IMG/VR virus record: IMGVR_UViG_3300027764_000031
Location: 1 to 24,413 of that record
Strand: one strand, 5' to 3'
Source: a virus
Taxonomy: Duplodnaviria; Caudoviricetes
Length of the DNA stretch: 24,413 nt
Shown here: positions 2,632 to 19,722 of the stretch, piece by piece
How positions within the stretch are numbered: the stretch's first letter is position 1
Layout of the letters: the number at the start of each line of letters is the position of its first letter
The notes under the pieces: generated by a model
The model's input: only the letters and a program-made list of their open reading frames with translations
Told to the model about the DNA's origin: nothing
Databases searched by the model: none
Position numbers and translations under genes: made by a program

Positions 2632-4640
2632 GAGACTAGGACTTTCGGAAGTTCCTCTTCTCTCTTTCTTTCTTCCTCCGCTCTCTCTTTAAGAGCGGGG
2701 GAAGAAGGAAGAAGAGGAACATGCCCTTCTTCCTCCCTCTGTTTTGGAGGAGGAAGAAGAGAGACGGATGAACCGTATTTCAGTTGATTTCCTGTCTTGC
2801 CGTTGCTCACAATCAGACCTTCCTCGACTGCCTCGTCGTTGATTTCTGCGAATGTGGTCTTGGAGACTGGGATCTTCTTCTTGACCCGATTGTGGATCTT
2901 GGTCAACGACTCGAAGATGCCTTGGAACATGTAATTGTGAGCCAAGTCTTCAGCCGTCAATTTAGGACCAGAGTTCCTATTCTTCAACTTCGGCTCCTTG
3001 CTTGGGTCATAATGGAACAGAGGAAAGTCAAAGCGCAGCACCTTCGGCTTGATGGGTTGCCATGACCGCACGGCCGCGTCAAGAACAAAGTGCTTGTCCT
3101 CTTCATGCTGACGCAGGACAAGATGGGTGTCCGCTGCCCGGCTGATGCTGCCTGCGCCCGCTCCGACATCCGTCACGCCCTTCTCAGATTGGTTGCCCTT
3201 GCTGGCATGGTGGATGAGAACGAAGCAGCAGTCGAGTTTCTGCGCCCATCCGTCGACCATGTTGTACACGCCCGCCATTGCGCCGTTGTCATTCTCATTG
3301 ATGCCAGCGCAGATGAATCTGTAGAAGGCATCAAGAATTACCATGTCGTACTTGTTCTTCTCAATGGTGTCGAACAGCAACGGCCCGATCTTGTTGAAGT
3401 CGATCAGGTTGCCGCGCAAGTTCAGCGTGAACAGGTTGGCGAGTTCGCTTGTGTCAATCCCCATAGCAGTGCAGAGCGCGGGTAGTCGGTTGGCTGTGGT
3501 CTCGCTGTGTAGTTCATTGTCGATTAGTAGAACTCTGCTTTCAACGGTGTCATAGTCCATCCACTTGCGACCTAGTGAGGCATTAATGGCTAGATTTGAA
3601 ACAAGCCAACTCTTGCCAGTCTTTGGCGGTGCAATGATGTTCATGGTTTCACCCGAACGAAGCAGACCTCTGATAATCGGTCGCCTCATTTCTTTGTGAG
3701 CATGGATCAGATCTACTGCTCGGCTAATTACCAAAGCAGAATCTGGAACTGCGGGAAGCACGCTCTCAGCATCTCCAACGCACGGCAATCTCGGCTGCTT
3801 GAATGCGTTTGCAATCTGCCTCGATAGGTCTTTAAAATCAAACTCAGACAGCCCGAGCGTCTGCGCCCGCTCCTCGATCACCTTTACTGCATCGCCCTCA
3901 TCCCACGATCGAGCGGCAAGATCACATGCCACCGTGAAGACAGTCTGACGACGACCCGCAGGCATCACATATCCCTCGTTCAAGAATCGGTGCGATAGGT
4001 TGCTCATTGACTTCAGCACTGGCGGCACGACAACACTCACTCGCTCCGACTCTCCATCCGTCGGGTCAGGAAAATCTGCAAGCGAGTAGGTGTTGTCCGT
4101 GTCGACTGCGGCCACATAGCAAAGAGGTCGGTGGTCGTACTTCGTATTCACAAAGCCCGGCAAGCGCATCAGGCGCGGAGCGTCGTGAATGCACTTGTCA
4201 GAGCCGAGCCGAGCCGCGAGTGCCTTCTGATGCGCACAGTGAATATCCATGTCGAGGCACGGCTCCGACAGCCGCCACCACGCATGCACGCCGCCTCCAG
4301 TGGCAACAATCGCGGTCGGCTCAGGTATCAGTGACTCCTCTATTTTCATCTTGGCTTGCTCGATGGTCGTGCCACCGTCAAAGTCTGCGTACAAGCACCT
4401 GGCCATGTTCACATCTTTGGCAGTGCCGCCCTTCTTGTTCGCCCTCGGGTTGGCTCCGAAGTACATGTCGGTCGCGCTGCCTCCAAGTTTCGTCAGGTCG
4501 GCAATGATGTCGGGCGCGTCCTTGAGGTTCGTCCACTTCTGCACGCGCATCGCGCCGAGAGTGCGTATCTCGATGATGTCGTCCTCGGCAAAGATGTAGG
4601 GCAACAAGCGGTAGGCGTGGCTGATGACTTCAGTTTCCAT
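2628..4640 (-). CDS. Primase-helicase (RepB-type primase, PriCT-like region, AAA_25/RepA-like helicase)
   Basis: YFGANPR, LYADFD, TGGGVHAWW, RLMRLPGF in the N-terminus; Walker A APPKTGKS, LIDNEL, ILDAF, IHHASKG in the C-terminus. Confidence 0.9.
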   Translation of the reverse strand: METEVISHAYRLLPYIFAEDDIIEIRTLGAMRVQKWTNLKDAPDIIADLTKLGGSATDMYFGANPRANKKGGTAKDVNMARCLYADFDGGTTIEQAKMKIEESLIPEPTAIVATGGGVHAWWRLSEPCLDMDIHCAHQKALAARLGSDKCIHDAPRLMRLPGFVNTKYDHRPLCYVAAVDTDNTYSLADFPDPTDGESERVSVVVPPVLKSMSNLSHRFLNEGYVMPAGRRQTVFTVACDLAARSWDEGDAVKVIEERAQTLGLSEFDFKDLSRQIANAFKQPRLPCVGDAESVLPAVPDSALVISRAVDLIHAHKEMRRPIIRGLLRSGETMNIIAPPKTGKSWLVSNLAINASLGRKWMDYDTVESRVLLIDNELHSETTANRLPALCTAMGIDTSELANLFTLNLRGNLIDFNKIGPLLFDTIEKNKYDMVILDAFYRFICAGINENDNGAMAGVYNMVDGWAQKLDCCFVLIHHASKGNQSEKGVTDVGAGAGSISRAADTHLVLRQHEEDKHFVLDAAVRSWQPIKPKVLRFDFPLFHYDPSKEPKLKNRNSGPKLTAEDLAHNYMFQGIFESLTKIHNRVKKKIPVSKTTFAEINDEAVEEGLIVSNGKTGNQLKYGSSVSLLPPPKQREEEGHVPLLPSSPALKERAEEERKREEELPKVLVS
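2651..2759. repeat. Two adjacent purine/pyrimidine inverted repeats with GGAAGAAG units (candidate origin)
   Basis: GTTCCTCTTC 2651-2660 / GAAGAGGAAC 2711-2720 with nested arms; CTTCTTCCTCC 2726-2736 / GGAGGAAGAAG 2749-2759. Confidence 0.6.
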
Positions 4641-4743
4641 AGTTCACTCCCCACGAGTAGAGGATCCACCACATCCCGATCAGCCCAATAGACAGCCCGA
4701 GATAAAACGACTCGACGCTGTCGTGCATTCGTTTGAGTTTCAT
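4630..4743 (-). CDS. Small membrane peptide (37 aa)
   Basis: Not in the ORF track. MKLKRMHDSVESFYLGLSIGLIGMWWILYSWGVNYGN*; ATGA overlap upstream; ends overlapping the primase start; one hydrophobic segment. Confidence 0.6.
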   Translation of the reverse strand: MKLKRMHDSVESFYLGLSIGLIGMWWILYSWGVNYGN

Positions 4744-5201
4744 GCGGCCTCGAATTCAGAAATATCACGAATAAATTGTTGCTGGATGTATGACCACCCA
4801 TTTTCATTTTGGGCTAGATGTATTACATCCGAAGTATTAACCCATCCTTTTATAATAAAATTAGGTATTTCACCGCCAACAAATACCATTCGACAATTAG
4901 GCTTGTCTCTTTTTTTAATGGCATACCCATCATTAGCCCATCTAACTTCTATATCAATTCCTACATCTGGTCTAGTCGAGAAGGGATTGTCAACAACACC
5001 CGACCAATATTGACCAAAGAATTTTGCAACAGCACACTCGGCAAATGCTCCATAAATATGCTGTTTAAAGCCGTCCCTATTATTGTTTTGCGGTGGAGAT
5101 TTATCAAGATTATTTCCACCCAATATGTTGTTTAACTCTCTACGAGATCCAACAACAATAACTAAATTGCATTCTTCTTTAGTTAATATAATTTCATTCA
5201 T
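4740..5201 (-). CDS. AT-rich hypothetical protein, possible PD-(D/E)XK-like fold
   Basis: GAFAECAVAK...PDVGIDIEVRW; AAGGA RBS; visibly AT-rich compared with its neighbours. Confidence 0.7.
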   Translation of the reverse strand: MNEIILTKEECNLVIVVGSRRELNNILGGNNLDKSPPQNNNRDGFKQHIYGAFAECAVAKFFGQYWSGVVDNPFSTRPDVGIDIEVRWANDGYAIKKRDKPNCRMVFVGGEIPNFIIKGWVNTSDVIHLAQNENGWSYIQQQFIRDISEFEAA

Positions 5202-5740: not shown

Positions 5741-6501
5741 TTCTTACTCGCTTTCTTTTCTGACAATTTGCTGTGACCAGTCGCCACCTTGGCGACGAGT
5801 CGATCCCGAACATCCTCACGAGATGTGCTTCCCTTTTCCGCTGCGGCTTGCGCCGACGCGGCTGAAATTTTGTGACCCAATTCCTTGGCGATCTCGCTGA
5901 CTTGCCCGGCTAGACCTGCGATCTGCTCCTCAAGAACAGACTGCTTCAGCATTGCCATCACGCTGCTCGACCCGCTGCTCGGGGTTGTTGCCTCGGGCAA
6001 TGCAAATCCGTGCTCGTTTCTTCTTGGCGTTGCAGGCAAAGCCACGGCCTCGATCGGCATCTCCTCCGCAGGTGTGCTTTCGATCTTGAGCAAGTGCGGG
6101 ATGATTGCGCAGCCGTGTCGGTAGGCACGACCAGTCGCTCGAGTGATAGCCATCGACCGCACGCTGAACGCCGAGCGTCCCCACGGCGCACGCTCCGCGC
6201 TCGACGCAATCGCAGAGCCACGGCTGACGGTCTCGCCTGTGTCGATGCGCACGATGGCGACGACAGCCATGTACTCCGTCGAGCCGTCCTCTGTTACCTG
6301 CTTTACTACCTCTACTTCGGTGCTTGTAACATTGAATGCCCATCCCACCGCTTGCCACCACGCCACGGTCGGATACTGCCGACCTTGAATGTTGACGATG
6401 AGATGCCCGACGGTCGACGCAATCTCCTTGGCGATTGCCTTTGCCCGCTGCATCTGCGCCAATGGTGTCGGCTGATCTGTTGACATGATTTCGTTTGTCA
6501 T
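5737..6501 (-). CDS. Single-strand annealing recombinase (Rad52/RecT-superfamily-like)
   Basis: GRQYPTV...SMAITRATGRAYR motif; lies between the exonuclease and SSB; start at ATG 6501 (GGAG RBS, ATGA overlap). Confidence 0.65.
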   Translation of the reverse strand: MTNEIMSTDQPTPLAQMQRAKAIAKEIASTVGHLIVNIQGRQYPTVAWWQAVGWAFNVTSTEVEVVKQVTEDGSTEYMAVVAIVRIDTGETVSRGSAIASSAERAPWGRSAFSVRSMAITRATGRAYRHGCAIIPHLLKIESTPAEEMPIEAVALPATPRRNEHGFALPEATTPSSGSSSVMAMLKQSVLEEQIAGLAGQVSEIAKELGHKISAASAQAAAEKGSTSREDVRDRLVAKVATGHSKLSEKKASKK

Positions 6502-7343
6502 CTCTGCTCCTGTAATTTCTTTAATGCCCACGCTGGCAACCCAATGTCGACGACATCGTCCTGCGGCCATCCCGGATACTTGTTCTCGACAACACACTTC
6601 CACCACAGTTTCTGCAACTCGGGCAAACGCTCGCTGTAGCAGTCCATGACCTCGTCGCTCATTCTGTAGACCGCAGTTCCAAACGGAGCCACGGACTCAA
6701 CGACTAAAAACACAAATGAGAAATCGTCGGGCAACATGCGACCTGACGATTCCATTGCGGATCGCAACACGGCCCGATACCAAGCCGCTTGCATGCCGTA
6801 TCCAAAGTTGGCAATCGACTTCTCAAAATCACAAGCAAGGTCGCGTGTGGTCTTTAAGTCACAGACCATGCCGTGACCGTTCCACGCATCAAGCCGGGCC
6901 TTGGCGGGAAAGCCGCCGATCTCGCCAAACACGCTGACCTCACGCTTCTTGCATGCGCTAAGGCAATGCTTGATGCGCCAATCACGATTGCACGCGGCGA
7001 TCATGCCGTCAACTTGTTGCGCCTGATCTGGCGTGATGATGCATCGCCCCTCGTTTAATGCGGCGAAGGTGGCGTACTCCTCCTTACCTAGTTTTGTGCG
7101 CTTGTCTACATCGGGACTCACAACCGCCTGCGCTAAATCATTCTCAGGCTCAAGAATCCCCGCATGCGTAGCAGAACCGACTGCAAGCGCAGGTGATGAC
7201 ATCGGAGTTTCCATCATCTCCTTTGCGTGCATCGGTGTGCTGCTTTGCAACTTGCGAGCAAGTGACGACCCGACCGCGTCATCGCTGTGATACGCAAGCG
7301 CAGGCAAATTCTCGACGATGCAATTTCGTAGACGCAGACTCAT
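6498..7343 (-). CDS. RecE/exonuclease VIII-like PD-(D/E)XK nuclease (DUF3799-like)
   Basis: YHSD..VGSS, GSATHAGILEP, KARLD, CDLKTT, YGMQAAWY, FVFLVVES; start at ATG 7343 (ATGA overlap). Confidence 0.9.
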   Translation of the reverse strand: MSLRLRNCIVENLPALAYHSDDAVGSSLARKLQSSTPMHAKEMMETPMSSPALAVGSATHAGILEPENDLAQAVVSPDVDKRTKLGKEEYATFAALNEGRCIITPDQAQQVDGMIAACNRDWRIKHCLSACKKREVSVFGEIGGFPAKARLDAWNGHGMVCDLKTTRDLACDFEKSIANFGYGMQAAWYRAVLRSAMESSGRMLPDDFSFVFLVVESVAPFGTAVYRMSDEVMDCYSERLPELQKLWWKCVVENKYPGWPQDDVVDIGLPAWALKKLQEQR

Positions 7344-7735
7344 GCGACACCTCGCATTTGTCGCCACGCTAAAACAGCACGCTGCATCAACGACGACTTC
7401 TGCACTTCGCTCACGAGGTCACGCTCAAGGATCTCGCGCACCATGTCGCCCTGCCCGAGCGAGACCAGTGGGATCTCCTTCGGTAGGTCGCCCTGCAAGA
7501 TCTTCTCGCAGGCTGTCATCACTGACTGAGGATCTGCCTCTGCGACTGGATCAAGTAGACGGATCACATCGCCGAGTCGGCTTGCGATCACTAACTGAAT
7601 CGCCATCGCGCCGTGTCGGAGTTGCTTCGCCTCGAACGGCTTTGTCGGTTCGATCCTCGCGGCCAATCCTCGAAGCCGATCCATTGCCAATATCACATCC
7701 TCTGCCCTGTCTCCCCATGTTGCGTCCTTGCTCAT
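7340..7735 (-). CDS. Hypothetical protein (131 aa), first gene of the early operon
   Basis: AAGGA RBS; coupled to the RecE-like gene; overlaps the integrase ORF tail in another frame. Confidence 0.7.
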   Translation of the reverse strand: MSKDATWGDRAEDVILAMDRLRGLAARIEPTKPFEAKQLRHGAMAIQLVIASRLGDVIRLLDPVAEADPQSVMTACEKILQGDLPKEIPLVSLGQGDMVREILERDLVSEVQKSSLMQRAVLAWRQMRGVA

Positions 7736-8849
7736 TCTGCATCCTTATCTGACTGACCAATTGGTCAATCGAGTGGATCAGACGGTCAATCGGGCTGTCG
7801 TTACAAATCCCGCCAACCCGATTTGCGTCTGATTGCAGCGAGTGAGAGTGCCCACGAGGGCTCAAGTGTTCAAGCCCGAGGCCCCCGCGAGCACACTCAT
7901 TCGCTGCATTTGTAGTAGTTGAGGGCTTGAACACATGTGCAGAAGAACATGGCTGATCCTGCTTGTCAAGGGCTGTAGATGATAAATCTTTCCCGAATTG
8001 TGAAATTTTTTCTATGCCTGCTTTGAGGGTCGAATCCTTGTGACGCAAGTAGCGATGGGTTTGATCCACGCTTTTGTGCCTGACCAACTTCTGAATCAGG
8101 TCAGCCGGCACGCCTAATTCAAATGCGCTGGTGATGAACCCGACGCGCATGCGATGCCACTTGCCACGCCCTTCAATGCCGCAACTTTTCATGTCCCGAT
8201 CAAGTCCCTTCTGCGTCGGGTAATCCTCGAACACCATTTCGCCTTGGCTGATTTGCCGCCACGCTCGCAGCGTTGTCACGACGCTCGCGGATATAGGCAG
8301 TGTGTCTCTTCGTCGACTCTTATCTTTTGTGACCTTGATTTCTGCACGCTCTAAATCGATGTCATCCCACCGTTGACATCGCCATTCACCCCAACGCATG
8401 CCAGTGCCGTTGAGCAGTCGGTACAGCACGGCTCGAGCGTTGGCGTTGTTGCGGATACGGCCATCAGGATGACGCGACGCACGCTCGGCGGCGACGATCA
8501 ACCTATTGACCTCGTCTTGTGTGAGTGCGTCTGCGCCAACGCCAGCGCGTCCACGCGGAGCGGGTATCGACACCCACGGATTGATTTTGAGTCTGCCTTG
8601 CACGACGAGCCAACCCGCAAACTGCCTGCATAAACTCATGCGATTGCGCACGGTCTGCGGCGAGAGTTTGCGACTCATGCTCATCGCACTCAACCATGCG
8701 ACGCATGATGCGGGTGTAAGTTTGTCGCCTGCGTGTTCAACCCAACGCCGCGCCCATCGCCCGGCGTTCTTGGAATGATGTATGTCATAGCCTTGTTGAT
8801 CAACAAGCCATACTTCCCACGCAAGTACCTCGTCAGTCAGCGTTAACAT
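7551..8849 (-). CDS. int: Tyrosine integrase with a long C-terminal extension
   Basis: N-terminal SAM-like region (LSPQTVRNRMS); catalytic R (GMRWGE), K, HxxR (WHRMR), H (VRHKS) and Y (THRYL). Start at ATG 8849 preferred over 8912 because a -10 box lies just upstream. Confidence 0.9.
   Translation of the reverse strand: MLTLTDEVLAWEVWLVDQQGYDIHHSKNAGRWARRWVEHAGDKLTPASCVAWLSAMSMSRKLSPQTVRNRMSLCRQFAGWLVVQGRLKINPWVSIPAPRGRAGVGADALTQDEVNRLIVAAERASRHPDGRIRNNANARAVLYRLLNGTGMRWGEWRCQRWDDIDLERAEIKVTKDKSRRRDTLPISASVVTTLRAWRQISQGEMVFEDYPTQKGLDRDMKSCGIEGRGKWHRMRVGFITSAFELGVPADLIQKLVRHKSVDQTHRYLRHKDSTLKAGIEKISQFGKDLSSTALDKQDQPCSSAHVFKPSTTTNAANECARGGLGLEHLSPRGHSHSLQSDANRVGGICNDSPIDRLIHSIDQLVSQIRMQNEQGRNMGRQGRGCDIGNGSASRIGREDRTDKAVRGEATPTRRDGDSVSDRKPTRRCDPST
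7788..7825 (+). other. Candidate attP core: tRNA(Pro)-like 3' end with flanking inverted repeats
   Basis: CAAAT-CCCGC-CAACCCG-A (7804-7821) fits T-loop end, 5-nt T-stem strand, 7-nt acceptor strand, G72/A73. Inverted repeat AATCGGGCTGTCG (7788-7800) / CGCCAACCCGATT (7811-7823), 11 of 13 matching. Second inverted repeat CAAATC/GATTTG (7804-7809 / 7820-7825). Confidence 0.65.
7834..7934 (-). ncRNA. Candidate structured RNA: 75-nt hairpin with its loop complementary to an upstream 12-mer
   Basis: Hairpin 7908-7834 with about 30 pairs including 5 G-U; GGGCTTGAACAC (7877-7866) is the exact complement of GTGTTCAAGCCC (7934-7923). Confidence 0.6.
7941..7969 (-). promoter_or_regulatory. Candidate early promoter inside int
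   Basis: Perfect TTGACA (7969-7964), AT-rich upstream tract, 17-bp spacer ending TGT, but a weak -10 (TCTTCT). Confidence 0.35.
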
Positions 8850-8886
8850 TCGGGTTGGATTGTAGGCAGTAAAACCACAAAGACAA
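8848..8886 (-). promoter_or_regulatory. Candidate int promoter overlapping a copy of the attP core-type repeat
   Basis: TTGTCT-N16-TACAAT-CCAACCCGA-ATG; ATTCGGGTTGG (8848-8858) matches the attP arm AATCGGGTTGG at 10 of 11 positions. Confidence 0.55.
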
Positions 8887-8944: not shown

Positions 8945-9460
8945 TTAGCCGCCCGATAATTTATGGATGATCGATTTCGCCACGCCCGCCACCGCGTCCA
9001 CCGCGCTGGCGACGCTTGCGCCAGTGCCTTCGACCTTACCCCACTTTGCGAGCGGGCATTCAACGCCCGCCAGTGTCACCTTCACGGTGAGCATTGCACG
9101 CGGGTTGTTTCCGCAGCCGCACTTGGTGCACCACCCAACGCCGCCTGCGTCGGTCTGTTCCTTATAAGTTACAGCCCGATGCTTGCACGCCATGCAGATC
9201 GCAAGTCGCGCCGCCGCGTCTGCTTCGCTAGCAGGGCCTTGCGTGGCGTGTGTTAGTTCGGCGCGGGCGTAATCTTTTGCTAGTTGAATCTGTGTCCGTG
9301 CTTGCGTTTCACTTTGTATCAGTGCTTGCGGGACTCCGTCTATCACTCGGTGCTTGCAATATTTTCTACACACTCCCAATGTAGGCTTTTCCCAATGTTT
9401 AGCGGCACAACATCCACCGCCCTGCACTCCGCATTCTAGCCAATGGTCGCAAATTTTCAT
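8945..9460 (-). CDS. Cys-rich protein with a DUF6171-like C-terminal motif
   Basis: 12 Cys; RLAICMAC...CTKCGC...K...CPLAKW. Confidence 0.7.
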   Translation of the reverse strand: MKICDHWLECGVQGGGCCAAKHWEKPTLGVCRKYCKHRVIDGVPQALIQSETQARTQIQLAKDYARAELTHATQGPASEADAAARLAICMACKHRAVTYKEQTDAGGVGWCTKCGCGNNPRAMLTVKVTLAGVECPLAKWGKVEGTGASVASAVDAVAGVAKSIIHKLSGG

Positions 9461-10491
9461 GATACTTCAAACCTAGTTACTACCCAAGGAATTGAATGCC
9501 CGCCTGTTGATGTAGCAGTTCCACAACAAGGTGTATATGTATTTGTAGATAAACTTCCACTACCAGAAGTAAAACTGTACCCATCAAAAATATCATTATA
9601 ATGATATGTGGGATTGTTTAACGGGTAAGAAGCAATTAGTGGCGACCAACATGAATATTGCGGAGTAGTTGTACCAAAAGTAAAAGACATATAATACGAG
9701 TAGGGTACGCTAGCCCACGCAAGTGCTCCGCATTGATTAGGTAGCGCGTAGTTGGTTCCATCCCCTTTTAACAAAAAAACGGGTATGCAATAATCTGTAG
9801 AAACCGCAGGATAACTCCAATCAAAACAAGATGCACCACCAAAATCATCCGCTACATATGCGATATGTTGATAAAAAAGCCTTGTATCAGTTGCAATACT
9901 TGCTGTTCCATTTGAATAAAAACTATTTTCTTCGCATATACCCGCAACCATTTTTATATTAAATCCCCCACTCCACCCGCAGCCAACATCGGGGTACACA
10001 CATTGACACGGATCAGTTTCAGGATCAGGTGGATAATTATTATTAATGACAATACATGTGATAATGGCTTTGTATGGTGTTGAAGCATTACTTGGATTTC
10101 TACGATCCTGACACCCTGGTGGACAAATTACATCGCCACATCCCACTGCTCCAATACCATCTTCACCTAAATACACTTCTCCAGTAATAGTATTTGGCCA
10201 CGCGCTACACGCATCTACATCTCCACAATACATTCTATATTGGCATTGGGGAGTTTGTGTCATCGGCGGGTATTCAGAATTACAAATTTCATTAAATTTT
10301 TTCATCACAAAAGAAAATGTGTACGGAGTTCCATCCCAAGTTAAATCAATTTCCACAGTTACAAAGCCAGGCAGTGAATTTATGTAAGTTGGTGATGTTG
10401 AATAATCACAAGAATTTGTTTCAGGCTCAACCGCTGAACATGTTGCGTTGCATTGATTACAACAACATCCCGCCGCGTGCATCAAACTCAT
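9457..10491 (-). CDS. AT-rich Cys-rich protein, possible virion or receptor-binding protein
   Basis: Start at ATG 10491 (GGAGGT RBS, ATGA overlap); MSLMHAAGCCC; about 24 Cys; rich in Tyr, Thr, Ser and Gly. Function is inferred only. Confidence 0.65.
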   Translation of the reverse strand: MSLMHAAGCCCNQCNATCSAVEPETNSCDYSTSPTYINSLPGFVTVEIDLTWDGTPYTFSFVMKKFNEICNSEYPPMTQTPQCQYRMYCGDVDACSAWPNTITGEVYLGEDGIGAVGCGDVICPPGCQDRRNPSNASTPYKAIITCIVINNNYPPDPETDPCQCVYPDVGCGWSGGFNIKMVAGICEENSFYSNGTASIATDTRLFYQHIAYVADDFGGASCFDWSYPAVSTDYCIPVFLLKGDGTNYALPNQCGALAWASVPYSYYMSFTFGTTTPQYSCWSPLIASYPLNNPTYHYNDIFDGYSFTSGSGSLSTNTYTPCCGTATSTGGHSIPWVVTRFEVS

Positions 10492-10991
10492 TTCGTCGAC
10501 CTCCCCCACGCCGCCGCAAACAGTGGATCACTCGCCCGCTTCGCCGCCACAAATTCACGCGCCGTAGTCGGGTCATCACTGAGCATCTTGCCCGCGAGAT
10601 CTGCCTCGTTCTGCACTCGGCGCGGAATCCAACCGATAGCAAGTCGGATGAGCGTTCCTAGTCCTGTCTGCCACAGCGCCACCACCAGCGCCACCGCAAC
10701 AACGGCTACTAAACCCCATTGAATCAGTGTCATCCAAAATGGCACGATGTCTTTAACTCCCGCCACGGCCGTTGATATCTGCGAAACCTCATGCAGGATC
10801 ACCGCAGTGTCGCCTTTTATGACAACAGCCGCAGCCACAATCTCGGGCTGAGTCGAGTTTGCCGCAATGAACCCTGCACGCTCAGAGATTGAGTGTGCTG
10901 CGCTTGCGGCGACGCTGGCGCTGCTGGCGATCTCCTTGGTCGCAGAACAGCCCGCTGTGAGGGCGGCAAGAACTATCGCTTGTCGAACCAT
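10488..10991 (-). CDS. Lipoprotein with a second transmembrane segment (unimolecular-spanin-like topology)
   Basis: Signal MVRQAIVLAALTAG-C-S (lipobox); later hydrophobic helix WGLVAVVAVALVVALW. Confidence 0.65.
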   Translation of the reverse strand: MVRQAIVLAALTAGCSATKEIASSASVAASAAHSISERAGFIAANSTQPEIVAAAVVIKGDTAVILHEVSQISTAVAGVKDIVPFWMTLIQWGLVAVVAVALVVALWQTGLGTLIRLAIGWIPRRVQNEADLAGKMLSDDPTTAREFVAAKRASDPLFAAAWGRSTK

Positions 10992-17214: not shown

Positions 17215-18480
17215 TTACGCAGGGTTAGCGAAAACGCTAAATGCGTCTTTGAGCGTGATCGAAAAATCACAACGATTCGTGGCCAAATATCCAACTTGTC
17301 CCGACCCGGCGAAGATTTCTTTCATGACGCGCATGCTGTAAGTGCCGCGCTCTGCGAGAACGGAATAGTTTCCGAAGTCGCCGATCACGCCGATCTTTGC
17401 CAATGTCGCAGATGCCATCACTGGCATTGCCGCAGATGTGTAAACAGGAATACCGAGCAATCGATCTGGCTCACCGAGTGCGCCAGAGTTCTGCCAGAAG
17501 TATGAAACTGTTCCACCAACTGCACCAAGTTGTCGCAACTTGCTGAGAGTTGCATCGTGAACCAAGATGCTGGCATTCGTGCGGTATTGACGACCGAGCG
17601 AGTAAACCCAATCGATCACTTCAGAAGCGAGGATTGTGCTGTTTGTCGCACAAGTCTTGCCAGTGGCAATCGTGGTAGCCGCTGAACCTGTTCCCATCAA
17701 AGGATTGGTAGGGCCGCTGGTTGCGGCTGTTGGTCCAACAAACGCGGCTTCTTCCGCTTGTGCAAACAAACGAGCAAAAGACTCGGTGAGAATTGACTCG
17801 ATGCTGAATCCTGCGCCACGCGCTGGAGCATCTTCGACAAGTTCATTTGAGACCTTTAAGAGAGCAGTCAACTTCTTTGGTGTCAAAGTGATCTTGTCAA
17901 AAGTTTGACCAGTCTCCGTGATTGTGGCCCCTTCTGCGGCAAATGTCGCACTGCCCGCCGCGTTATCCACGGCAAACTCACGCGCATAACTGCCGATTGA
18001 GATCACCTTGGCAAGTTGACGGATAGCACACATCGTCTTCAGTCGTGTCGTTATGGCGTTATGAAACTCCAATGGAGGTAGGACCGTGCCCCCGCTTGCC
18101 TCGCTGATTGCGCGGATCTCCATCGGGTTGGTGTATTCACCGGATCGAAGGTATGAACTCCAAGCATTTCCGTACTCGGCTGTTTCCGTGTTGCGACCCG
18201 ACTTGTTGCTTGCATTCTCAGCACCGGGAAGATTGCGAACTTGTTTCGCAGACTCGGGAGCCTCAGCCTTGAAGCCCGCGCCAACATTCATCAACTCGTC
18301 GCTGCGTTGTCGTTGCGCTGTGAGTGATGCGTATTGCATCTTCAACGCGCTGTACTTCGCTTCGAGAGCGTCTGACATGCCTTCGCCGCTATCGTTCGCG
18401 TCGTCGCACATCTTCTTCATTTCGGCGTAGATCGCCCCCATTTTCTGAACCAGAGCCGCATATCCACTATCGTTTGCCAT
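17215..18480 (-). CDS. Major capsid protein, HK97 fold, with N-terminal delta-like domain
   Basis: Coiled-coil N-terminus; RAISEASGGTVLP, AAEG, LTPKKL...KVSNELVED, RLLGIPVYTS, VIGDF..Y, RCDF. Confidence 0.92.
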   Translation of the reverse strand: MANDSGYAALVQKMGAIYAEMKKMCDDANDSGEGMSDALEAKYSALKMQYASLTAQRQRSDELMNVGAGFKAEAPESAKQVRNLPGAENASNKSGRNTETAEYGNAWSSYLRSGEYTNPMEIRAISEASGGTVLPPLEFHNAITTRLKTMCAIRQLAKVISIGSYAREFAVDNAAGSATFAAEGATITETGQTFDKITLTPKKLTALLKVSNELVEDAPARGAGFSIESILTESFARLFAQAEEAAFVGPTAATSGPTNPLMGTGSAATTIATGKTCATNSTILASEVIDWVYSLGRQYRTNASILVHDATLSKLRQLGAVGGTVSYFWQNSGALGEPDRLLGIPVYTSAAMPVMASATLAKIGVIGDFGNYSVLAERGTYSMRVMKEIFAGSGQVGYLATNRCDFSITLKDAFSVFANPA

Positions 18481-18579: not shown

Positions 18580-19722
18580 TTAAGAGAGTCCGTAAGCCAT
18601 TGCAGCCTTTACATCTGCGAGAACGCCAGCGCAGCGCATGGAAACAATCAGAGCCGTCTGATCATTTTCTGCAAATGTTTCGCCTAGTTTTGTGACTGTT
18701 GCGCCTTCGCTGCTTGAAACAAATAGATATCGTGTGAGATCCGCAAGGATTGCCATCGGCTCCTGACCGCTGGCAATTACTGCATTGCCAGTGTTTGAGA
18801 TGCTCATATCTTGCAAACACCAAGGCACGCCAAACACTTTGCGATCGCTGCCGTATGCAAATGCCGCTTGTGCATTTGTGGCTGAGACGATCTGTGTTCC
18901 TTGAACTCCAGTAGTAGCCGTGGTTCGACCAAGTTGGGAATTAAGAATCAGTGTCGCTCGGTTGAAATACTGAGTCGGGAATGTTTGAGCGTTTGTGTTT
19001 CCAAACAGAATTGACTGAATGCTGTCACGCACCGCTGTGCTGCTGAGACCATTGTTGAAATCACTTGTCGGGTATTGCCGACTGTATCGCCTGCATGTTG
19101 AGTAGATGCCGTGGCATGAATCAGATCCGACCGTGCTCGCCGTTCCTTGGGTCTGTGTTCCTGTCGCATTGCCAACAAGAATCTGCTTGACAATTTGAGT
19201 TGAAATATCTGCGGCCGCTTGGCGCACAATGAAACTCTCGACGCTTGCGTCGCCTTGCCCGACCGAATCCTCGAGCAACTCGTTCGACACTTTCACCATC
19301 ACGCTGATGCGCTTGAGCGCCAGCGTAGATGTCGCCGTGCCCGATGTCGTCGTGCCCGGTAGCGCAATCGTTGGAACGGTCACTGTGGTCTGCGATGTTG
19401 CTGTGGCATCGATGATTGTGCCCGCTTCGCCAGGGTTCTTTTGCAAACTGAACCCGCCCTGCAAAGCCACTGGAGTCAGGATTGGGATTGAGAAGGTGGA
19501 CGACTTAATCACCATCTTTTGCACTTGACCAAGGATTTGGTCGTCGCCCAACGCTTCCATAAACTTGTTGGAATAGATGGTCGGGAATAGGACAGTGCCG
19601 CCGCTGGTCTCGCTGAGAGCACGCAACTCAGAGTCGGTCATGCCCTTAGCGCCACGCAATAAATAATTCTTGAAAAGGTGGCCGTATTCTTCGCCGCCAC
19701 GGTCGAGTTGGTTCTTGTTCAT
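18580..19722 (-). CDS. Second HK97-fold capsid paralog lacking the delta-like domain
   Basis: RALSETSGGTVLFP, LALKRI..MVKVSNELLED, KVFGVPW, ILADLTRY, MRCAG; AAGGAG RBS. Confidence 0.85.
   Translation of the reverse strand: MNKNQLDRGGEEYGHLFKNYLLRGAKGMTDSELRALSETSGGTVLFPTIYSNKFMEALGDDQILGQVQKMVIKSSTFSIPILTPVALQGGFSLQKNPGEAGTIIDATATSQTTVTVPTIALPGTTTSGTATSTLALKRISVMVKVSNELLEDSVGQGDASVESFIVRQAAADISTQIVKQILVGNATGTQTQGTASTVGSDSCHGIYSTCRRYSRQYPTSDFNNGLSSTAVRDSIQSILFGNTNAQTFPTQYFNRATLILNSQLGRTTATTGVQGTQIVSATNAQAAFAYGSDRKVFGVPWCLQDMSISNTGNAVIASGQEPMAILADLTRYLFVSSSEGATVTKLGETFAENDQTALIVSMRCAGVLADVKAAMAYGLS

Follow-up and report, generated by a model that had tools for sequence, protein, structure and literature searches.

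Analysis of a 24,413-bp virus record (called the window here, meaning the whole stretch of DNA analysed) revealed a conserved RNA hairpin that is encoded in the 3' part of a tyrosine integrase gene, is absent from Rfam and is fused with the phage attachment site (attP). It occurs in a phage lineage seemingly lacking a CI-type repressor. Comparison of sequences indicates that the element is real, and the function given to it here is a proposal. We propose, with a probability of roughly 0.55, that the hairpin represses the early lytic operon as an antisense RNA, confers immunity and is wired to integration. In two related prophages integration severs the hairpin from the lytic genes, and dormancy of the virus is therefore likely maintained by the hairpin, with no repressor protein involved. 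The features of the region are listed in Table 1.

Table 1. Features of the integrase region, with positions in the window, strand and supporting evidence.
Feature	Position	Strand	Evidence or remark
RecE/exonuclease VIII-like early gene	6498-7367	-	Profile matches
First early gene, 131 aa, no known family	7340-7735	-	Homolog at attR in G791 (E 6.5e-13)
Tyrosine integrase ORF, 453 aa	7551-8912	-	Pfam Phage_integrase, E 3e-17
Nested 127-aa ORF in the Int frame, crossing hairpin and attP and overlapping the first early gene	7551-7934	-	Open frame
Amphipathic-looking Int-frame helix past attP, lost on integration	7722-7793	-	pLDDT about 50-64
Cys codon 370; a host T-loop base is predicted to turn it into TGA on integration	7803-7805	-	Seen in G791; predicted from L290
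Predicted attP core, antisense tRNA-Pro 3' end, T-loop to discriminator	7804-7821	+	17/18 bases identical to tRNA-Pro(GGG) of Phycisphaerales MAG L290
RNA hairpin, 31 pairs, covarying	7834-7908	-	Folding and covariation
Antisense segment (loop 7867-7874 and top of stem)	7866-7877	-	Complementarity, covariation
A/C-rich linker, candidate processing site	7909-7922	-	Unpaired in single and consensus folds
Predicted transcript 5' end, loop target, beginning with Int-frame GTG	7923-7934	-	Complementarity, conservation
Predicted internal int promoter (TTGACA 7964-7969, 17 nt, extended-type non-canonical -10 at 7941-7946)	7941-7969	-	
Catalytic Tyr of Int, followed by 166 codons	8049-8051	-	
Likely int start	8849	-	
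Predicted int promoter, 10 nt upstream of the ATG at 8849	8859-8886	-	Consensus scan, 9/12 matches

All annotated genes of the window lie on the minus strand, in the order terminase, portal, protease, capsid, tail, integrase (Int), the 131-aa protein, RecE-like exonuclease, primase-helicase and resolvase. Complete relatives measure 25.1-27.8 kb, from which the window lacks perhaps about 0.7 kb, and the recognisable genes are one-stranded too in the four relatives listed. The phage belongs to a family of small Planctomycete phages. Among named phages all matches were below 60% identity, and those listed were at about 25-27%. The promoter called upstream of int is a weak call, as 1.1 such promoters are expected by chance in the consensus scan. 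Searches for a family, Pfam or PHROG match to the first early gene were negative, and the Atlas search was also empty. Elsewhere in the window, the tandem genes 17215-18480 and 18580-19722 each gave a match to the phage capsid family (E 1.5e-44 and 2e-13, respectively), and complete relatives have a similar-sized pair after the protease. The genes 4740-5201 and 9457-10509 are low in GC (about 37-40% vs about 55%), have no Pfam match and are likely swapped-in modules; the former has a PHROG match of unknown function. The second strongest fold of the window (2651-2750, plus strand, -53.7 kcal/mol) lies at the 3' end of the primase-helicase gene and is possibly an origin feature.

The hairpin contains five G-U pairs and an 8-nt loop and has a folding energy of -54 kcal/mol, the lowest among 1,946 100-nt windows on both strands (z -6.55; none of 200 shuffles was as stable). 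A long minus-strand hairpin inside an open Int frame had been reported in the preliminary description, and both points were confirmed. The strand specificity claimed with it held in part. In the near clade of relatives the stem contains 92 G-U vs 27 A-C cells, the latter mostly in the lower stem, and the upper stem shows G-U rather than A-C cells; in the far clade the stem contains 15 G-U vs 11 A-C cells. Against strict specificity, the plus strand of the region folds too (z -4.06), and the int-sense strand folds better in only 33 of 50 relatives, the other strand folding at least as well in 17. The upper stem thus shows a genuine strand bias, though not an absolute one. The linker next to the hairpin is unstructured and may be a processing site. 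A scan of the window for a clear U-tract terminator after the hairpin on the int-sense strand found none. A second minus-strand stem (7783-7829) encloses the attP core; its pairs are kept by compensatory or G-U changes in the relatives L014, L020 and L030, and integration would break it.

Analysis of the sequence upstream of the hairpin revealed an exact 12-nt complement between 7923-7934 and 7866-7877; only two perfect 12-nt inverted repeats within 100 nt occur window-wide. The earlier claim that the loop is complementary to the transcript start stands as far as the 12 perfect pairs are concerned, but the loop itself contains only eight of these nucleotides, and the other four are in or adjoin the top of the stem. 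The claim that the target starts about 7 nt after a -10 element can be kept with reservation. The TTGACA is unchanged in all 14 aligned sequences, and TTGACA-17-GATAGT is found at the same position in the distant prophages L362 and L363. Since the -10 lacks the usual A and the consensus promoter scan does not call the leader promoter, we infer the +1 at 7934 instead of reading it from a promoter call.

Relatives were collected by Int searches, which returned two groups: a near clade with 69-100% identity and a far clade of homologs with about 45-53%. Screening of 115 sequences, with truncated, identical and motif-less ones dropped, gave 52 distinct int 3' segments; with four added and identical leaders merged, 50 leaders were used, 22 from the near clade (one prophage included) and 28 from the far clade. 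Stem covariation was found at 21 of 32 pairs in the near clade, many members of which are 91-98% alike and not independent, and at 12 of 23 pairs in the far clade. In the helix between the 5' end and the loop, both sides change at six of nine pairs in the far clade and at two of eight in the near clade, both of the latter owing to the prophage alone. These covariation scores were reached by none of 500 shuffles, and slid controls dropped to 31-47% paired. An exact complement of 6-12 nt to +1/+2 is present in the hairpin top in 50 of 50 leaders, representing eight seeds (shuffled null 78/10,000). Here +1 was defined as the seventh base after the -10 motif, and since the far-clade -10 motif was picked after viewing the sequences, the far-clade register is partly fitted. 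Overall, the covariation that the preliminary description had asked to be sought in relatives was found, and it supports the proposed selection on both the RNA hairpin and the pairing of loop and 5' end.

In the relatives L020 and L030 the loop and 5' sequence of the window are kept, the stem is rewritten and the tRNA target is different; hence the att core can vary while the RNA seed stays as it is. Searching viral sequences with the 5'/loop DNA pattern gave 16 matches, all of them relatives. The 59 matches in cellular genomes were judged to be chance from their names and spans, and the three Planctomycete matches among them that were searched further gave weak Int matches only. Int searches of genome contigs returned nothing for the near clade or P0049, and three short contigs for the far clade.

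Analysis of the Int frame revealed that the coding sequence continues through the RNA. Of 49 free-phage sequences, 48 have this frame open from the -10 to 60 nt beyond att, and none has either of the other two frames open. An in-frame start codon occurs at a fixed place in all 49, as GTG at +1 in 21/21 near-clade and as ATG at +11 in 28/28 far-clade sequences. The preliminary description overlooked this start codon in or beside the paired 5' segment. In the structural model Int folds at residues ~25-294; the stretch coding for the RNA is disordered, and so is the tail save for a helix at 374-397. Both clades have a comparable hydrophobic helix after att. The open frame, fixed start and helix together point to a nested leaderless or short-leader ORF, the start of which is covered or flanked by the antisense pairing, and the ORF would presumably be translated. 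It has no Pfam or PHROG match. Only in the relative L180 (tail of 77 codons) does a deletion between hairpin and att break the frame, and this is either a natural mutant or an assembly error.

The preliminary description also overlooked the attP directly downstream of the hairpin. An antisense tRNA 3' end follows the hairpin in every relative, with three tRNA types represented; a whole tRNA was not found in the window by ARAGORN. The tRNA pattern does not fix the host, as about 1,200 stretches across phyla hold it. The location of attP directly after the hairpin means that integration would detach the RNA from the early operon. Since no prophage belonging to the clade of the window was found, the attP of the window is predicted by homology; the position of att and the split were observed in two other prophages, described below.

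A search of 401 Phycisphaerales genomes with Int gave six matches, all adjoining a tRNA or tmRNA. In G791, a 37.9-kb prophage carries terminase, portal and capsid genes between 19-bp repeats, and the attL/attR repeat lies at the position homologous to the attP core of the window. At its attL, the restored tRNA-Pro is faced by int, the promoter and the hairpin, the seed of which has covaried, and a homolog of the first early gene is found at attR. The host T-loop turns the Cys codon at this junction into TGA; when attP is rebuilt, a nested ORF of 94 aa that includes the helix is regained. The second prophage, in G730, is 40.5 kb long, lies at a tRNA-Leu between 51-bp repeats and has a 10-nt match of 5' end and loop over an in-frame ATG; its rebuilt frame also restores the helix, and the stop overlaps the next ATG. 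In both prophages int, promoter and hairpin are at attL and the early genes are 38-40 kb away at attR. The same attL layout was found in L362 (tRNA-Ser, 14-nt match) and L361 (tmRNA, 7+4 nt by eye), for which attR was not found. The RNA module is thus intact in four integrated elements, and the downstream genes are absent there. For G706 and G643, attR was not found within the contig stretches covered.

The module is not a constant companion of these integrases. Among nine Phycisphaerales Int matches, L364, L365, L375 and L376 are without it and L377 ends at a contig edge; the Int match G068 from a phylum search was without it by eye, and the G730 Int, searched against its class, retrieved no sequence but its own (1/401). 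In L375 (G846:C36) the sister Int ends right after its catalytic Tyr. Next come a promoter of the TTGAC type and a structured leader of another kind, which has a T-loop-like hairpin and no Rfam match and could represent a further RNA switch at this position.

Repressor genes were sought in the window and its relatives. None of the HTH repressor families was found in 31 main and 146 further ORFs of the window (177, not every small ORF included). HTH_3 was over the cut-off in none of five complete relatives and gave weak matches in three; these are genes of 64-69 aa in the early operon, the part severed by integration. Two observations speak against control without a repressor protein. Small HTH genes are present in the early operon of G404, G405 and G408, and an HTH_3+Peptidase_M78 gene, which could be a protein repressor, lies beside a second tyrosine integrase within the prophage of G791 (G791:C4 70626-73597); the pair is perhaps a nested element. 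The absence of a CI-type gene fits with an RNA that would replace the repressor. A consensus promoter beside attR was not found by consensus scan in G791 or G730, a negative weakened by the fact that the same scan misses the leader promoter. Two contigs from lake-water RNA libraries, X1 (7729-7998) and X6 (7737-7955), bridge hairpin and att core in the unintegrated form; they are taken as presence in RNA libraries rather than as a record of transcription, strand or ends. RNA contigs (X1, X5, X6) cover 7000-8000 but not most of the int body; this pattern was discarded as evidence, because the contigs extend beyond the predicted +1 to 7955-8042 and the RNA runs had been chosen with this stretch.

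The proposed mechanism builds on the hairpin, the covariation of 5' end and loop, the ORF kept open in the Int frame and, in G791 and G730, the location of att and the separation that results. The promoter inside int would drive the leaderless or short-leader ORF, the translation of which would carry expression across attP into the early genes. A co-transcriptional folding series found the 5'/loop helix to be the best fold at 75-85 nt, and the long stem replaced it from 90 nt onwards. Within a single transcript, the 5' end would accordingly pair only briefly with the future loop, until formation of the long stem breaks up this pairing and exposes the start codon, and the first transcripts after infection would be productive. 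Because this helix is transient, one molecule would free its own start, and accumulated hairpin could block others in trans. The hairpin would be released as a stable RNA, accumulate and bind new 5' ends, causing a block of initiation and polarity. After integration, the promoter, hairpin and truncated ORF at attL would keep making the RNA and so provide immunity, while the early genes at attR would be without that promoter until excision.

Trans binding calculated net of opening averaged -22.0 kcal/mol for cognate vs -7.7 kcal/mol for non-cognate pairs, and the cognate partner was best in seven of eight rows. Plain co-folding, a method that cannot represent loop binding, gave no trans complex or gain. 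Differing loop sequences would mark immunity groups; against this, a cross-reaction occurs in the far clade (5' end of L167 with the hairpin of L191, -25.3 vs -23.7 with its own), and one seed is common to 21 near-clade phages. A fuller picture is offered tentatively. In a lineage without a repressor protein, 250 bp of the int tail would hold an early promoter, a leaderless ORF, an antisense hairpin at its start and attP; integration would unplug the lytic operon, a stop from the host tRNA would cut the leader, the constitutive immunity RNA would stay, and the loop would set the immunity group.

Four other explanations were weighed against the antisense repressor. Pairing of 5' end and loop in one molecule might do no more than time or attenuate the nested ORF, with integration alone silencing the lytic genes and no RNA immunity in trans. 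The folding series, in which the 5'/loop helix is the best fold for a time, is consistent with such a cis-only switch, covariation cannot separate cis from trans, and the att split by itself strips the promoter from the early genes. We nevertheless regard it as unlikely: the finished stem outcompetes the helix by about 20 kcal/mol (-54 vs -33.7), a pseudoknot would by our estimate need a linker of 14-20 nt to span 31 bp, and the module is kept in the integrated elements though the genes downstream of it are gone. An improbable reading at the DNA level takes the repeats as attP boxes for Int or a directionality factor; the hairpin would then serve chiefly to terminate host tRNA transcription on the opposite strand after integration. 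The repeats do adjoin attP, the plus strand folds (in the 17 relatives at least as well as the int-sense strand), the near-clade stem contains A-C cells, and a T-rich tract follows the hairpin on the plus strand in some relatives. Yet the second copy is always in the hairpin top and the first at the predicted +1, the upper stem contains G-U and not A-C, and the far-clade 5'/loop helices show 17 G-U vs 7 A-C. Moreover, a separate terminator-like hairpin is present beside att in G791 and several far-clade phages (by eye), and the Int model has no arm-binding domain.

Lambda sib retroregulation is a control of int mRNA stability through a nuclease site. The present stem, long and in the 3' part of the int message, could likewise be cut by a double-strand nuclease and so determine how stable the int mRNA is, but it stays with int in both states, and neither the 5'/loop covariation nor the fixed start codon is explained; we consider this the least probable of the four. 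Activation by the RNA is highly improbable: trans pairing would open or stabilise the transcript and turn the early genes on, as a multiplicity sensor or an aid to induction. In its favour, IsrK is described in the part of its source used here as activating orf45-anrP through a coupled upstream ORF (PMC4825925), and the rebuilt G730 frame has the same stop/start overlap. The target here is, however, a start-codon region that is unpaired in the resting fold, so that binding would cover the start rather than free it. By analogy with IsrK, the sign of the regulation could still be the opposite of that proposed.

The preliminary description had compared the element with P4 CI and C4 RNAs. The Infernal comparison with Rfam (C4, c4-2, isrK) that it had suggested gave no gathering-score match for the window or for eight far-clade loci, and the matches by E-value were sub-threshold and to generic miRNA hairpins. 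The element would thus work in the manner of P4 CI/seqA with eta/kil without being a member of that group: an upstream leader target is present in 50/50, whereas the Rfam match and a second, downstream target are missing. A 7-nt seqC-like copy within 600 nt was found in one of 49 sequences (about 0.07 per sequence expected), a search length at which shorter or wobble targets are possible. In the portions of the P4 sources used here, immunity involves seqA, CI RNA and seqC with eta/kil, and the RNAs are in Rfam as C4 and isrK (PMC4825925, PMC10111431, PMC3632133). By that account P4, like the present phage, has a promoter internal to a longer gene (here predicted and uncalled by the scan), a nested in-frame short ORF, an RNA that can pair with an upstream site of the leader carrying it and a one-strand genome without a CI protein. 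The present element differs in being a single long hairpin with an upstream target only, in having the integrase as its host gene with attP cutting between the RNA and the regulated genes, and in belonging to a full tailed phage and not a satellite.

Other systems share single aspects, as far as the passages drawn on describe them. In mycobacteriophage BPs, integration is the switch, attP lies in a coding frame, the C-terminus is lost and Int lacks an arm-binding domain (PMC3694055), as the model of the present Int also suggests. In immunity of the BPs type, integration removes a C-terminal proteolysis tag (PMC3694055); in G791 and G730 integration takes away the Int tail. BPs attP is, however, in a protein repressor gene with a divergent cro (PMC3694055); here attP is in int, the genes are one-stranded, an HTH repressor was not found in the window, and the candidate regulator is an RNA. 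Myxococcus phage Mx8 has attP inside a tyrosine int gene, the long C-terminus of which is replaced on integration (PMC4701971); this arrangement is seen in G791 and G730 and is predicted for the window from the homologous core. The part of the Mx8 account used here mentions a change in Int activity only, and no internal promoter, RNA or early-operon split (PMC4701971). Gifsy-1 IsrK-orf45-anrP resembles the present leader in its self-complementary RNA, alternative folds and coupled upstream ORF; it differs in that IsrK is the 5' part and activates, while here an internal loop targets the 5' end, isrK is not matched and the att site is inside the leader (PMC4825925). The archaeal suicidal integrases of SSV1 and pTN3 also have att inside the int gene and a tRNA target, but the enzyme is split there, whereas here the catalytic domain stays whole and only the tail is cut (PMC8371274).

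In the section of their paper considered here, Broussard and Hatfull propose integration itself as the simplest ancestral phage switch, and their examples still need a repressor protein (PMC3694055). The principles met in this study (RNA control, attP in int, integration as a switch) are already known; the combination is new and its function is proposed. A description of this element was not found in the literature searched, which left most subscription papers outside its scope, and supplementary motif lists of RNA-discovery papers could hold it. Lysogeny control in Phycisphaerales phages, of which the searches likewise gave no description, is examined here for the first time. The RNA motif has no Rfam counterpart, and its natural compensatory variants comprise at least eight seed types. 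These variants make testing cheap and would give orthogonal RNA on/off pairs. The element joins RNA-type control to a split by integration in a complete tailed phage.
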